The notes beneath the pieces are model-generated. The model worked only from the letters and a program-made list of their open reading frames with translations, did no database searches and was not told the origin of the DNA. From an uncultured Oscillospiraceae bacterium (GTDB taxonomy: Bacteria; Bacillota; Clostridia; Oscillospirales; Oscillospiraceae): a stretch of 40,587 nucleotides of DNA. The DNA is taken from contig CANRQC010000001.1 in NCBI GenBank assembly GCA_947632695.1, positions 1 through 40,587 of the forward strand, written 5' to 3'. This document shows, piece by piece, positions 13,594 through 18,139 of the stretch (positions are counted from its first letter, which is position 1; each line of letters begins with the position of its first letter). The translations under genes were made by a program, and so were the position numbers.

Positions 13594-14814
13594 ATGAAAT
13601 CGATCCGGGAGCTGTATAAAATCGGGAAAGGGCCGTCCTCGTCCCACACCATGGGGCCGGAGCGGGCGGCGGAGCTATTTTTGTCGGAGAATCCCCAGGC
13701 GGACGCCTTCCGGATCATTCTCTACGGGTCCCTGAGCAAAACAGGAGTTGGCCACGGCACGGACCGGGTCCTGCGGCAGGTGTTCGCGCCAAGGGAGACC
13801 CAGATCGAATTTGCCGGGGAGGCGCCGGCGGGCAGCCACCCCAACACCATGGACTTTTTCGCCTACTACGAAGGGCGGGAGCTTGGCCAGCTGCGGGTGG
13901 AGTCCATCGGCGGCGGGGACATCCGCATCCCAGGTCGGCCGGAGGTCCAGGGGCCGGAGGTGTACCCGGAAAATTCCTTTGCGGAGATCGCGGATTTCTG
14001 CAAATGGCGCTACATCAGCACCCTTAGCGAGTATGTAGAGATCAACGAGGGGCCGGAAATTTGGGACTTCCTGATGGAGGTCTGGCAGGCCATGAAGGCC
14101 TCCATCGACGAGGGCCTGCGGGCCACCGGGACCCTGCCCGGCGGGCTGGGGGTCCAGCGGAAGGCCCGTTATCTATATGAGCAGGAGCTGGCCACCGAGG
14201 TGCCCCAGGTCCGGGAGTGCCGGATCATCTGCGCCTACGCCTACGCCGTCTCCGAGCAGAACGCGGACAACGGCACCATCGTCACCGCCCCCACCTGTGG
14301 GGCCAGCGGCGTGCTGCCGGCGGTGCTGAAATACTTTCAGGACACACAAAACGCCTCGGATGAGCGGATCCTCCGGGGCCTGGCCACGGCGGGAATCATC
14401 GGCAGCCTGACCAAGCGGAACGCCTCCATCTCCGGGGCGGAATGCGGCTGTCAGGCGGAGATCGGCACCGCCTGCTCTATGGCGGCGGCGGCACTGGCGG
14501 AGCTGTACGGCCTGAACCTGGATCAGGTGGAGTACGCCGCGGAGATGGCCATGGAACACCACCTGGGCCTGACCTGCGACCCCATCAGCGGCCTAGTGCA
14601 GATCCCCTGCATCGAGCGCAACGCCGTGGCGGCCATGCGGGCCATGAACGCCTGCAATCTGAGCTATTTCCTCTGCGGCACCCGAAATATCAGCTACGAC
14701 ATGGTCTGCAAGGCCATGTACGAAACGGGCCTGAACCTGGCCAAGCAGTACAAGGAAACCAGCGAGGGCGGCTTGGCAAGGTTCTTGGGGAGAAGAAGGG
14801 GAAGCCTGCAATAA
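13594..14814 (+). CDS. sdaA: L-serine dehydratase, Fe-S dependent, single chain
   Basis: GKGPSSSHTMGP, VTAPTCGASG, SISGAECGCQAE, LGLTCDP, QIPCIERN. Confidence 0.93.
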   Translation: MKSIRELYKIGKGPSSSHTMGPERAAELFLSENPQADAFRIILYGSLSKTGVGHGTDRVLRQVFAPRETQIEFAGEAPAGSHPNTMDFFAYYEGRELGQLRVESIGGGDIRIPGRPEVQGPEVYPENSFAEIADFCKWRYISTLSEYVEINEGPEIWDFLMEVWQAMKASIDEGLRATGTLPGGLGVQRKARYLYEQELATEVPQVRECRIICAYAYAVSEQNADNGTIVTAPTCGASGVLPAVLKYFQDTQNASDERILRGLATAGIIGSLTKRNASISGAECGCQAEIGTACSMAAAALAELYGLNLDQVEYAAEMAMEHHLGLTCDPISGLVQIPCIERNAVAAMRAMNACNLSYFLCGTRNISYDMVCKAMYETGLNLAKQYKETSEGGLARFLGRRRGSLQ

Positions 14815-15030
14815 TATTTCTGAAAAAAGACCGCCTGCGTTGCACCGGGAACCGGTTCGCGGGCGGACGATTTTTAAGTTAGCATTTTAGTTCGCATTTT
14901 TCTGTTTTTGCCACGCAAAAACAGGGGCACAGCCAGTACCTTCACCGGTCGCTGGGCTGGCGTAAAAAAGGGAAAAGGCGACATTGCACCTTGACAACTT
15001 CATAGAGATAGCGGAAATTTTGATGAAATA

Positions 15031-15052
15031 GCCCTCCCCATAAGGGGAGGGT
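15031..15052 (-). terminator. hairpin downstream of DUF4352-like gene
   Basis: ccctcccc-ataa-ggggaggg. Confidence 0.55.
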
Positions 15053-15063
15053 CTTGGGAATCA

Positions 15064-15708
15064 TTATTTACTATATTCAAAAACAAATTCTTTGTTTGAC
15101 CAAAAATCAGCTTTAAATCTGATTTCTATCGTTTTCCAATCTTGATCGGCCTCGTACCCAATTACGCCATTCATTTTCTTGCCAGCGGCAACAGAACCGT
15201 CAAGCTGTGGCTTATCGTCGCTCATCAGCCCGGACAAGCTGATACTGGTTGAATAATCATCAATATATGCCTCAAAAGACATTAGAGAGCTTACGGCTAT
15301 ATCTTTATCGGAATTGTTTTCAATTTCAAATTCGCATATTACGAAAACTTTTCCGTCGGATGGCGTAACAAAGTCTTTCCCAGTGCTTTCCCTGACATCT
15401 ACAAGCGTTACGATAATATCGTTAAGCTCAACCTTTTCTCCAACGCTAAACACAGTTTTTTCTTCCGGTGCTTTCGTTTCTGTTTTGTTTCCACTTGTAG
15501 AATTGCTCACATCTCCTACCTTGTGCGGCTCGTCACTGTTGCTATTTCCAAAAGCAGCCACTAAAGCAATTATACCAAGAATAACCAAGACTACGCCGAG
15601 GACAACGTGCTTTTTCTGCTTTGCTCCACAGTGTGGGCATACTTTTGCAGATTTTGCGATTTCTTGTCCACAAGATTTACATTTAACCATTTTTCCATTG
15701 TTTCCCAT
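15064..15708 (-). CDS. zinc-ribbon + TM + DUF4352-like protein (prophage moron type)
   Basis: CKSCGQEIAKSAKVCPHCG, one TM helix, beta-rich exported domain (FEIENNSDK..LDGSVAAGKKMNGVIGYE); RBS AAGGAGG; low GC. Confidence 0.8.
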   Translation of the reverse strand: MGNNGKMVKCKSCGQEIAKSAKVCPHCGAKQKKHVVLGVVLVILGIIALVAAFGNSNSDEPHKVGDVSNSTSGNKTETKAPEEKTVFSVGEKVELNDIIVTLVDVRESTGKDFVTPSDGKVFVICEFEIENNSDKDIAVSSLMSFEAYIDDYSTSISLSGLMSDDKPQLDGSVAAGKKMNGVIGYEADQDWKTIEIRFKADFWSNKEFVFEYSK

Positions 15709-15850
15709 AGTGTTTCCTCCTTCCGTATACAACTAAAATTTACCATATATTCCTTATTTTGTCAAGAATTTTGTTGAAGTATTAAAATTTTTGAAAAGCA
15801 TTTTGACATTGCAATAATATCGATTCTTTTTCGCCACTAATACAAAAGCT

Positions 15851-15890
15851 AAGATTCCCGCTATCTCTATGAGGTGGCGGGAATCTTTTT
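15851..15890 (+). terminator. terminator-like hairpin
   Basis: aagattcccgctatctc-tat-gaggtggcgggaatctt-ttt. Confidence 0.55.
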
Positions 15891-15906
15891 ATTTGGTGGT
15901 GAGACT

Positions 15907-15960
15907 ATGGCAGCAGACGGTTCCGTTGTTATCCAGACAAGGACGGACGCAAAAAGGTAA
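15907..15960 (+). pseudogene. N-terminal stub of a phage tape-measure protein
   Basis: RBS GGTGGTGA then MAADGSVVIQTRTDAKR*, resembling the MAADGSxxIxT start of clostridial siphophage tape-measure proteins. Confidence 0.5.
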
Positions 15961-15994
15961 AAAAGCCGCCCTCTCGGGCAGCTTCCTTATAACG

Positions 15995-16008
15995 GAAGGA
16001 GGGATTTG
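15995..16008 (-). repeat. 14-bp direct repeat of the tRNA-Ser T-arm/acceptor (att-like)
   Basis: gaaggagggatttg at 15995-16008 is identical to 16583-16596; a terminator-like hairpin follows on the - strand at 15959-15988. Confidence 0.6.
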
Positions 16009-16055
16009 TCTCATCGAAACAATTGATCTATGTATTGGAAACGCAAGTGAGTCCC

Positions 16056-16403
16056 CTATATGTCGCTCTTTTTAGCTGTATTCAAAGAGGAAATCAAAAT
16101 CCGTTTAATTTCGATACACTGCTCTAATAAGTTTTTATCAGAATAATATCCACTTTCTAAAAGCAACTCGATCCAGTACTCTGTTTCAGAGCATTCCTTT
16201 AATGCAATTTGGAGCTTCGCAATAAAATCCGCTCTCCCGTGGGCGTAAAACGCCTCTCGGATATTTGCGCCGATGCTTGTTCCAGAACGCAGGAATTGAC
16301 TGACAAGCGCACCTTCGCATTTTGCAGCCCGCAATGTTTTGCACGCTTGGATTACATTTAAAGCAAATATTTTGGATTTTTCAATCAGAGGACTGTTAGA
16401 CAT
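16056..16403 (-). CDS. four helix bundle protein (23S rRNA IVS-protein / Avd-like family)
   Basis: KSKIFALNVI, QFLRSGTSIGANIREA, DFIAKLQIALKECSETEYWIELL. Confidence 0.92.
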   Translation of the reverse strand: MSNSPLIEKSKIFALNVIQACKTLRAAKCEGALVSQFLRSGTSIGANIREAFYAHGRADFIAKLQIALKECSETEYWIELLLESGYYSDKNLLEQCIEIKRILISSLNTAKKSDI

Positions 16404-16446
16404 CGTTTTTCACACTCTTTTTCAATCGTCCGCGAAGCGGACACCG

Positions 16447-16539
16447 CACTTCTTCACTCTTCACTATTACCTATTACTTTCCGCCAAAAATCGGCCCATC
16501 GTATGAAGTGAAGAGTGAAAAGTGAATAGTGAAAAAGTA
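16447..16539. repeat. two complementary blocks of 7-mer tandem repeats (TTCACTN / AGTGAAN)
   Basis: cacttcttcactcttcactattacctattact (16447-16478) vs agtgaagagtgaaaagtgaatagtgaaaaagta (16507-16539). Confidence 0.8.
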
Positions 16540-16575
16540 AAAATCGGCAAGCTCCGAACGTCGCTTGCCGATTTT
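16540..16575 (-). terminator. terminator directly after tRNA-Ser
   Basis: aaaatcggcaag-12 nt-cttgccgatttt. Confidence 0.7.
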
Positions 16576-16667
16576 TGGCGGAGAAGGAGGGATTTGAACC
16601 CTCGATACCCTTTTGGGGTATACACGATTTCCAATCGTGCGCGCTCGGCCAGCTACGCGACTTCTCC
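16576..16667 (-). tRNA. tRNA-Ser(GGA)
   Basis: Acceptor GGAGAAG/CTTCTCC-G-CCA; anticodon arm CACGA-TTGGAAA-TCGTG; long variable arm; T arm GAGGG-TTCAAAT-CCCTC. Confidence 0.97.
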
Positions 16668-16767
16668 CTGTCCAGCCCGAATATCATACCCTATTCGGGC
16701 CGGTTTGTCAAGTCCCAATTTTTTGTCCCGCTAAAATCCGCTGCATTTTCTCATCCTTCCAATCTCA

Positions 16768-16796
16768 TTGACAAGGAGACGGAAAAATGGTATAGT
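16768..16796 (+). promoter_or_regulatory. sigA promoter of the cob/cbi operon
   Basis: TTGACA-17-TATAGT with extended TG. Confidence 0.75.
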
Positions 16797-16809
16797 AATG
16801 GTACAATTA

Positions 16810-16990
16810 AAGACCTGAGTGCCCCTTGGCCCGGCTTGGGCCCTGGGGAGAATAGGGAATCCGGTGCGAATCCGGAACGGTACCGCCGCTGTATGCGCGG
16901 AGGTTGGCAGCAGGACGAAAGTCGGTCATTGGCGAAAGCTGAGAAGGCGCTGTCAAGCCTGGGAGGCGCGAGTCAGAAGACCTGCTTGGG
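16810..16990 (+). ncRNA. cobalamin riboswitch
   Basis: AATAGGGAA-TCCGGTGCGAATCCGGA-ACGGTACCGCCGCTGT ... GAGAAGGC ... GAGTCAGAAGACCTGC B12 box, upstream of cbi genes; ends approximate. Confidence 0.92.
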
Positions 16991-17035
16991 TGATGGCCCT
17001 CTTGGATAGGGCCGGTTTGTGTGCGGAAATGCGGC

Positions 17036-17068
17036 CGCGGCAGCTTTGACTGCCGCGTTTTTTATTTT
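17036..17068 (+). terminator. riboswitch attenuator terminator
   Basis: cgcggcag-ctttga-ctgccgcg-ttttttatttt. Confidence 0.8.
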
Positions 17069-17080
17069 GGGGGTGAGAGC

Positions 17081-18139
17081 TTGGTTCTGAGCGGCTACGG
17101 ACACGGCGGGGACATCTACCGGAACCGGGTCCGGCTGGATTTTTCCGCCAACGTCAACCCCCTGGGTACCCCGCCGGAGGTCCAAAACGCGGTGCGGGAA
17201 GCAGCGGACCGTCTGGCCCCCTACCCCGATCCCTACTGCGGCGCCCTCCGGGCCAAGCTGGCCGCCCGGCTGGGGGTGGAGGAGGACGCCATCCTCTGCG
17301 GAAACGGAGCGGCGGAGCTGATCTACTCCTTTGCCCTGGCCTTGGCGCCCCGGCGGGCCCTGGCGCCGACGCCCACCTTTTCCGAGTATGCCGCCGCTTT
17401 GGACGCGGCGGGGTGCCGGGTCCTTCCCTTTCCCCTGGTCCGGGAGCGGGGCTTTCGGCTGGGAGAAGAGATTCTTCCGCAAATTACCCAGGATGTGGAC
17501 GCCCTGATTCTGTGCAATCCCAACAACCCCACGGGCCAGTGCGTTGCCCCCGACCTGCTGGTCCGAATTTTGGAGCGGTGCCGGGAGACCGGGTGCTTCC
17601 TGCTGCTGGACGAATGCTTCTTAAATCTTGCGGACCGGGAGGCCGCCTTCTCTCTCCTGCCCCTCTTAGGCCCCGGCGACCCGGTGGTGATCCTGCGGGC
17701 CTTCACCAAGCTCTACGGCATGGCGGGGCTGCGGCTGGGCTACTGCGTCTGCCGGAACCCGGAGCTTTTAGAAAAAATGTCCCGGTTCCAGCAGCCCTGG
17801 AACGTCTCCACCCCCGCCCAGGCGGCGGGGCTGGCGGCCCTGGACTGCGGGGACTTTGTCCGGGAGACCCTTGCCCTCCTTTCCGAGGAACGGCGGTTCC
17901 TGGAGGCGGGGCTCCAGGAGCTGGGCATTCCTTTTCTTCCAAGTAAGGTCAATTTTCTGCTTTTCCAGGGGGAAGCCGATTGGGGAGCGCGGCTCCTCGC
18001 CCAGGGAATTTTGATCCGGTGCTGCGTTAGCTTCCCTGGGCTGACGGCACGGGACTACCGCATTGCCGTCCGCACCCGCCCGGAAAACCGGGCCCTGCTA
18101 TCCGCCCTAGCTTCTCTGAAAATACGCAAGGAGGATTAA
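17081..18139 (+). CDS. cobD: L-threonine-O-3-phosphate decarboxylase
   Basis: HGGDIY, DFSANVNPLG, CNPNNPTG, PLP motif RAFTKLYGMAGLRLGY; likely TTG start after GGGGTG. Confidence 0.85.
   Translation: MVLSGYGHGGDIYRNRVRLDFSANVNPLGTPPEVQNAVREAADRLAPYPDPYCGALRAKLAARLGVEEDAILCGNGAAELIYSFALALAPRRALAPTPTFSEYAAALDAAGCRVLPFPLVRERGFRLGEEILPQITQDVDALILCNPNNPTGQCVAPDLLVRILERCRETGCFLLLDECFLNLADREAAFSLLPLLGPGDPVVILRAFTKLYGMAGLRLGYCVCRNPELLEKMSRFQQPWNVSTPAQAAGLAALDCGDFVRETLALLSEERRFLEAGLQELGIPFLPSKVNFLLFQGEADWGARLLAQGILIRCCVSFPGLTARDYRIAVRTRPENRALLSALASLKIRKED

Follow-up and report, generated by a model that had tools for sequence, protein, structure and literature searches.

The window, a stretch of 40,587 nucleotides, is contig C1 of a 1.98-Mb genome of 61% GC (G000). 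In a scan of GTDB the relatives of this host genome were gut Clostridia, and the public runs containing the stretch were mostly rabbit-gut or gut metagenomes. Directly behind an intact tRNA-Ser(GGA) gene lies a cassette of 563 bp with a GC content of 41%, compared with 61% for the genome (Table 1). Its only gene encodes a four-helix-bundle (FHB) protein and is preceded by a leader of ~160 bp that reaches from the CCA to the open reading frame (ORF). The leader is composed of a hairpin, a block of TTCACTN heptamers, an inverted copy of the CCA and hairpin arm, and a block of AGTRAN heptamers, in this order; the inverted copy corresponds to the last 7 nt of the tRNA and the first 9 nt of the arm. 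A sequence-only reading of the locus had described the two complementary heptamer blocks, the small hairpin, the FHB gene and a second copy of a 14-nt segment of the tRNA with a terminator-like hairpin beyond it, and each of these was recovered, with complementarity between the blocks at 16448-16475 and 16511-16538. That reading had not noted the inverted copy, the dispersal of the leader over the genome or the full extent of the cassette. The exact 14-nt match, between 15995-16008 and 16583-16596, has a chance expectation of 1.7e-4 in 2 kb.

Table 1. Features at the tRNA-Ser(GGA) locus of the window
Feature	Positions	Strand	Remarks
Sigma-70-type promoter of the tRNA gene	16683..16711	-	11/12 consensus matches
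tRNA-Ser(GGA), target of the cassette	16576..16667	-	intact, CCA encoded
Whole cassette: leader, FHB gene and 43-bp tail	16013..16575	-	from comparison with G123
Leader hairpin (arm A, loop, arm A')	16539..16576	-	terminator-like, flush with CCA
TTCACTN heptamer block (R)	16506..16538	-	
Internal inverted copy of tRNA 3' end and arm A	16480..16495	-	16 bp, perfect
AGT(A/G)AN heptamer block (R')	16448..16479	-	complementary to R
Small 6-bp hairpin	16428..16442	-	also in gene-less leader copies of G000
FHB gene	16056..16403	-	115 aa, TIGR02436 / PF05635
3' end of older ~157-bp tRNA-linked repeat	15995..16012	-	holds the 14-bp tRNA duplicate; outside the cassette
Terminator-like hairpin	15958..15989	-	also in G123, which lacks the cassette
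First codons of phage tape-measure gene	15907..15960	+	truncated
Zinc-ribbon/DUF4352 gene	15064..15708	-	separate prophage remnant

The FHB protein was assigned to TIGR02436 (98.8 bits against a cut-off of 24, E 1.9e-28) and PF05635 (81.4 bits against 33.8, E 6.6e-23). Its predicted structure consists of four helices (pLDDT 93), and the closest structures were 2RLD (TM 0.86, 47% identity, E 3e-7) and 2GSC, entries of five chains each. The gene is under strong purifying selection, with a median dN/dS of 0.028 over 206 pairs that are not independent of one another, and the ORF variants within populations, 6 of 6 among those listed, were synonymous. According to the accessible part of one study, PF05635 proteins are found in 23S rRNA intervening sequences (IVSs) and have no assigned function, a role as mobility factor being a hypothesis (PMC4990558).

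No promoter-like sites were found inside the cassette, and of the sites found only the tRNA promoter could reach the FHB gene, by read-through. The ribosome-binding site of the gene is weak. Many FHB homologues, unlike the copy in the window, have a promoter of their own as judged by eye. An Rfam search of positions 14500-17200 assigned the leader to no family, and Gut-1 (RF01706) gave no match up to an E value of 1; weak matches to sX4, SpF41 and plastid models were below the gathering score and overlapped the tRNA. Exact-pattern scans for the locus in metagenome and viral contigs returned no match. On the other side of the tRNA, an ordinary cobalamin riboswitch (RF00174, 91.5 bits, 16802-17003) stands before cobD-led cobalamin genes.

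We compared the locus with that of sister species, picked from 401 genomes of the genus and 88-95% identical at sdaA. The interval between tRNA-Ser(GGA) and sdaA holds neither leader nor FHB gene in G123, G224 and G097 (loci L195, L196 and L199), and a search for PF05635 gave a match in 0 of 5 sister genomes. Two others, G135 and G092, are likewise cassette-free and carry other trailers behind this tRNA; in G374 the tRNA gene was not located. The empty orthologous alleles that the sequence-only reading had called for were thus found. In 18 more distant members of the genus and two other genomes the leader was absent, by eye, from the up to 420 bases shown, and 6 of these 20 showed, again by eye, a repeat like the older one described below. 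As a separate observation, an ORF starts ~255 nt behind tRNA-Ser(GGA) in L028 (G002:C1), and its N-terminus may resemble Cas9 RuvC-I.

The interval of G123, G224 and G097 carries instead a repeat of ~157 bp, made up of a terminator, an inverted tRNA end, a palindromic core and a direct tRNA end; 21 nt are identical to the end of the tRNA, and in G097 the repeat is present as a fourfold tandem. Rfam gave no match to it in G123 or G097. Positions 15995-16012 of the window are the last 18 bases of this repeat before the point of divergence, and past the repeat G123 continues into the terminator and tape-measure start of the window. These 18 bases are the repeat tail retained in the sister species, and the cassette proper is therefore 16013-16575. 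By this alignment it occupies the place of the first 139 bp of the repeat. In the window the cassette does not end in CCA on its right but runs into the old repeat; this copy therefore has the look of a replacement, or of an insertion followed by a deletion. Similar units of ~157 bp were seen in G000 behind tRNA-Arg(ACG), tRNA-Arg(CCG), tRNA-Ala(GGC), tRNA-Ser(GCT) and tmRNA, and repeats of this type also in L024, L025, L030, L033, L035 and L037. A different, near-identical trailer of ~240 bp directly follows the CCA of tRNA-Cys, tRNA-Pro(CGG) and tRNA-Leu(GAG) on contigs C5, C36 and C38 of G000.

To the left of the cassette is a separate prophage remnant (~14815-15994), in which the DUF4352 gene diverges from the truncated tape-measure start, an arrangement also found in phage MT835513. 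The tape-measure identity is based on two weak tblastn matches (E 0.8 and 8), both on tape-measure N-termini, and the 20-aa tape-measure start had no match in PHROGs. One gene slot of the remnant, between 25-nt inverted repeats (14997-15021 and 15851-15875), is swappable, with DUF4352 in the window and an unrelated membrane-type ORF in G123. The cassette could be what is left at one end of a larger, deleted prophage, as its position beside the remnant might indicate. G135 moreover has an integrase-bearing element at tRNA-Ser(GGA), assigned to its family by eye: in L202 (G135:C5) a gene with tyrosine-integrase-like C-terminal motifs points towards the tRNA end, and ordinary integration thus makes use of this tRNA too. 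The two parts segregate independently, however. G123 has the remnant, with another gene in the DUF4352 slot, and no cassette, and contigs of runs X6 and X9, which come from two studies, contain the cassette but no remnant and depart from the window exactly at 15995. In addition, no PHROG match was found for the FHB protein, and of 22 viral FHB loci just one exceeds 51% identity to it. We consider a prophage origin extremely improbable.

The same break bears on the proposal of the sequence-only reading that the tRNA 3' segment and its 14-bp copy are the att sites of a minimal integrative element, which would leave as a circle by recombination between the two. Chance hardly accounts for the 14-bp match, the X6/X9 cassette allele departs from the window precisely where the copy begins, and at three homologous loci there is a strong copy of the tRNA end downstream. 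The break, however, is the edge of the phage remnant, which is independent of the cassette. In G123, G224 and G097 the copy is present with its terminator although the FHB gene is absent, and it ends the older tRNA-linked repeat; because the duplicate predates the cassette, the 14-mer copies are not att sites. Nor would recombination between them restore the ancestral allele, since 139 bp of repeat separate the copies there. The expected tRNA 3' duplication was also uncommon at homologous loci (described below): a cognate copy 3' of the gene stood out in 6 of 46, being within the top 5% against foreign tRNAs, and was strong in three, which leaves 40 of 46 with no outstanding duplicate; an exact cognate match of at least 12 nt occurred in 4 of 48. 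The att-site reading is largely refuted by the sister-species duplicate and the scarcity of cognate duplicates, and we regard it as very improbable. One contig, from run X4, joins 14923 to 16576 and was not accepted as proof of an empty FHB allele. At this joint 98 letters lie between the two sides, which is also the distance in G224 between the complete duplicate and 14923. The 21 letters that match could therefore belong to the duplicate, and a sister species may be the source of the contig. The sequence-only reading had further seen in the layout a possible circularly permuted insert. A circle joint was absent among the joints listed for assembled contigs; a circle could possibly be closed at the CCA instead of the 14-mer.

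The leader proved to be a dispersed repeat in G000. Its hairpin begins with the base that follows the CCA at 13 of 40 tRNA and tmRNA genes (ARAGORN calls), and the full leader is present at 10 of these 13. Three further copies lie behind displaced 3' fragments of tmRNA, tRNA-Met and tRNA-Leu, and in a copy behind a tRNA-Leu 3' fragment (G000:C168:1100-1200) a deletion between the two arm A' copies has removed the TTCACT block. Searches of the whole genome gave just one FHB gene. In several cases gene-less leaders occupy identical tRNAs in G000 and in sister species, and many are kept in sister species that lack the FHB gene; most copies are therefore inherited rather than fresh. The loop sequences differ between orthologous copies.

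In order to place the cassette among its relatives, we examined 110 genome loci (the best 30 of the genus search and the best 80 of 587 from the GTDB scan) and a further 81 loci (80 of 367 metagenome loci and the closest viral locus). Close kin are included in every tally, so no count is independent of kinship. Among genome loci whose FHB homologue is at least 61% identical, 61 had at least 330 nt upstream, and a same-strand tRNA end was present within 450 nt in 49 of these, in keeping with the earlier expectation that homologues would be tied to tRNAs. The leader was retained in 11 of the remaining 12, and 8 of the 12 showed, by eye, a CCA flush with the hairpin. The corresponding figure for the metagenome loci was 48 of 61, in a redundant set with 25 tRNA-Cys rows. 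Taking genome and metagenome loci together, 23 tRNA isotypes carry the leader with a close FHB homologue. The order of parts was that of the window, and the repeat order anticipated by the sequence-only reading was kept, with both heptamer blocks 5' of the ORF in nearly all homologues read; a TTCACT block 3' of the ORF was found in 7 of 113.

A tree was built from 45 genes, after two loci without a called tRNA and one truncated locus had been removed from the 48 distinct ones. It required 24 changes of tRNA label, where the minimum would be 12 and shuffled labels gave 32.3 on average; the labels are clustered yet switch often. A recent move was observed for a ~1-kb unit of leader, FHB gene and, by eye, a GNAT-like gene, which lies behind tRNA-Leu(GAG) in L082 and behind tRNA-Gln(CTG) in L083. 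The gene is 100% identical, the leader 99.5% and the next 444 bp 99.3%, and the flanks are unrelated. The two metagenome-assembled genomes (MAGs) are labelled as different families, and a cross-family reading hinges on correct binning of both. The units hold an FHB gene, other cargo genes or nothing: the leader directly heads unrelated ORFs in L156, L160, L164 and L165, and second genes vary between L082, L087, L048 and L098 (GNAT-like, deaminase-like and others, by eye), in the manner of cassette cargo. In L107, where tandem units lie behind tRNA-Met, just the final codons of an FHB gene remain in the first unit, which closes with 7 nt copied from the tRNA end and is followed by a second leader. 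As read by hand, a close FHB gene was present in 6 of 8 genomes with at least three gene-less leaders and in 8 of 93 others.

The right ends of the units were analyzed next to the first terminator-like hairpin 3' of the gene. A CCA at most 9 bases before it was found in 17 of 37 loci, compared with 14 of 185 control hairpins, and was absent in the other 20; eight loci without a hairpin and three that were too short are outside this count, and the window was negative. There are also tails with a terminal CCA that run directly into further leaders. Viewed as a miniature inverted-repeat element (MITE), the inverted pair of CCA and arm encloses only ~90 bp of leader, and a CCA at the right end is limited to the same 17 of 37 loci.

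The internal inverted copy follows the leader in which it lies. In 38 of 45 leaders it was closer to the arm of that leader than to foreign arms, and it terminated in TGG in 37 of 45. The base after TGG agreed with the discriminator of the tRNA in 16 of 37, against a permuted mean of 9.5 (p 0.003, with kin not independent). In the window the copy reaches 7 nt into the acceptor end of its own tRNA, whereas it does so in none of the 10 other tRNA-flush leaders of G000 that have a copy. This extension suggests that the copy was templated by, or paired with, the target. Template switching, or quasi-palindrome correction at an imperfect palindrome, can yield such co-variation without function. Pairing between R and R' had a z score below -2 in 43 of 45 leaders.

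Strong and conserved folding of this kind would also be expected of an element of RNA control or processing. Here the internal complement would pair with the CCA and arm of the tRNA, the heptamer duplex would be a substrate of an RNase III-type enzyme, and the FHB protein would bind this RNA and so regulate read-through or tRNA 3' maturation, with movement incidental. The strict same-strand placement behind the CCA fits such a role, and an alternative helix over the tRNA end is feasible at -15.5 kcal/mol (CCA and arm alone) versus -20.8 kcal/mol for the hairpin. RNase III excises the Coxiella IVS, which encodes a protein of the same family, according to the portion of PMC4990558 at hand. However, the internal copy lies 3' of the terminator-like hairpin and so could not be a classical antiterminator, and the patchy presence, the empty sites and the 99-100% identical units at different tRNAs are a better fit to a mobile element. 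We judge RNA control to be improbable as the main explanation.

A more serious alternative keeps the movement but takes it away from the protein. The leader could be a selfish or neutral terminator repeat, spread by host microhomology and gene conversion, and the FHB gene a passenger useful to the host, swapped between leaders by ordinary homologous recombination and without a role in movement. Leaders without a gene are frequent, and sister species that have no FHB gene still keep them; leaders head unrelated ORFs as well, and the loops of orthologous copies differ as expected from conversion. The junction in the window falls in the tRNA-like tail of the old repeat, and there is no linked recombinase. 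Nevertheless, the first arrival at each of 23 isotypes requires a joint within ~3-4 nt at the CCA, for which homologous recombination is inadequate. Close FHB homologues are almost never leaderless, as the 11 of 12 non-tRNA loci that keep the leader illustrate, the right end is enriched for CCA, and the FHB gene is enriched in genomes with several leader copies. We consider the passenger explanation rather unlikely.

A mobilizing enzyme was sought in G000, which is 96% complete. Neither a reverse transcriptase (PF00078) nor a Y1 transposase (PF01797) was found in it. Six matches to PF00589, five of them over the cut-off, were on other contigs and unlinked to the cassette, in agreement with the earlier description of an integrase-less unit. 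Reverse transcription primed by the tRNA on the internal TGG was also considered and was rejected, as a sense template would reverse the order of parts and no reverse transcriptase was found.

The flush position at the tRNA, the absence from sister species and the occurrence at 23 kinds of tRNA point to what is likely a selfish mobile cassette, which carries no known mobility enzyme. The minimal mobile unit of the sequence-only reading thus survives as a small, integrase-less, recently arrived element tied to a tRNA 3' end, and loses the 14-bp copy as its att duplication. We lean, with some reserve, towards the view that 16013-16575 is a recent copy of such a cassette, which moves by strand exchange at the CCA, aligned by the internal complement, with an enzyme acting in trans and the FHB protein as a heptamer-binding cofactor. 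The travelling form of the unit would be a single strand or a circle, with its two ends joined at the CCA. The internal complement would pair across this junction, holding donor and target in register for a few bases, and the strands would be exchanged by a host or trans-acting enzyme. A presumed FHB pentamer may bind the heptamer duplex as cofactor, by analogy with Avd on the RNA of its retroelement. Leaders without a gene would be non-autonomous copies, which also spread and are homogenized by recombination. Landing behind the CCA with a terminator-like hairpin of its own would leave the tRNA intact, and this would make the site a safe and strongly transcribed one. Against the mobile-cassette explanation, no mobilizing enzyme, circle or other intermediate was identified in the data searched. 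A wider claim, which we offer only tentatively, is that of a new class of mobile cassettes that use the CCA of any tRNA or tmRNA and have no integrase, transposase or reverse transcriptase of their own; the TGG and arm would be the guide and a PF05635 pentamer the mobility factor, and integron-like cargo arrays would pass between families of gut Clostridia.

The locus provides a compact test system, with a 563-bp unit, mapped ends, empty orthologous sites and a short universal target, CCA. The heptamer duplex is a candidate for the binding site, and a candidate for the guide is present as well. Should insertion turn out to depend on the protein or the guide, genes would have a new way into a safe and highly transcribed site in gut bacteria, and a role would be suggested from which the Avd protein of diversity-generating retroelements (DGRs) could derive. 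The results also carry a warning: a duplicated tRNA 3' end in these genomes is often the tail of a repeat and not an att site.

Elements with a tyrosine integrase that target tRNAs use the 3' end of the gene, and the tRNA stays intact. The FHB cassette, in contrast, has no integrase, as a rule no cognate att duplication, and no tie to one tRNA. IS200/IS605 elements, REP/REPIN-RAYT systems and integron cassettes feature hairpin-rich ends, very short targets, non-autonomous copies and stacked cargo cassettes. The likeness to the FHB cassette is one of description, and the cassette differs from them in that no Y1 transposase was found in G000, no integrase is linked to it and its target is the tRNA CCA.

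IVSs of 23S rRNA that bear an ORF for S23p / PF05635 are described for Coxiella and Leptospira in the accessible part of PMC4990558. In the Coxiella IVS the heptamers precede the S23p ORF, the element is excised by RNase III, and a hypothesis of the ORF as a mobility component is cited there. Insertions in the rRNA genes of CPR bacteria carry IVP ORFs, as an excerpt of PMC11270868 has it. The cassette shares with IVSs, as far as these partial sources describe them, the protein family, heptamers 5' of the start codon (Coxiella), and a sporadic, horizontally spread occurrence within the transcript of a stable RNA. In contrast, it lies behind the CCA end of a tRNA and not in an rRNA helix or gene, its ORF is not enclosed by terminal inverted repeats, both blocks being upstream, and it has many target genes per genome as well as cargo genes. 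Strong purifying selection acts on its ORF; that of Coxiella, in contrast, is said to be decaying in the same part of PMC4990558.

The tRNA-linked repeats (TLRs) of E. coli lie directly behind tRNA genes at several loci and have no known function, according to the available text of PMC8144298. The leader resembles them in its place directly behind 13 of 40 tRNA and tmRNA genes of G000, and the older ~157-bp repeat fits the E. coli description as given there. Identity to the last 18-19 nt of the tRNA was found for the ~157-bp repeat only; in the cassettes even a match of at least 12 nt is confined to 4 of 48 loci, and the FHB cassette, unlike TLRs, carries genes. In more distant FHB homologues, which are 50-57% identical, the Gut-1 RNA (RF01706; PMC2864571) serves as leader behind tRNAs, and 4 of 6 such loci scanned (L061, L063, L066 and L069) gave Gut-1 matches. 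The leader in the window has no RF01706 match and is built of two continuous heptamer blocks. PF05635 resembles Avd (PMC10053308, in part), which forms a barrel with the RNA of its element lying over it, as set out in the available portion of bioRxiv 10.1101/2023.10.23.563531. The FHB protein has the same fold as Avd, with a weak match to 4DWL (TM 0.75, 14% identity, E 0.16), but it is much closer to 2RLD, and G000 lacks the reverse transcriptase of a DGR. The cassette therefore falls outside the definitions of att-site islands, IVSs, TLRs, Gut-1 and DGRs. The literature searched, taken without its supplements, held no description of FHB cassettes at tRNA ends, and the cassette is apparently an undescribed, tRNA-end variant of the selfish elements that combine PF05635 with heptamer repeats.
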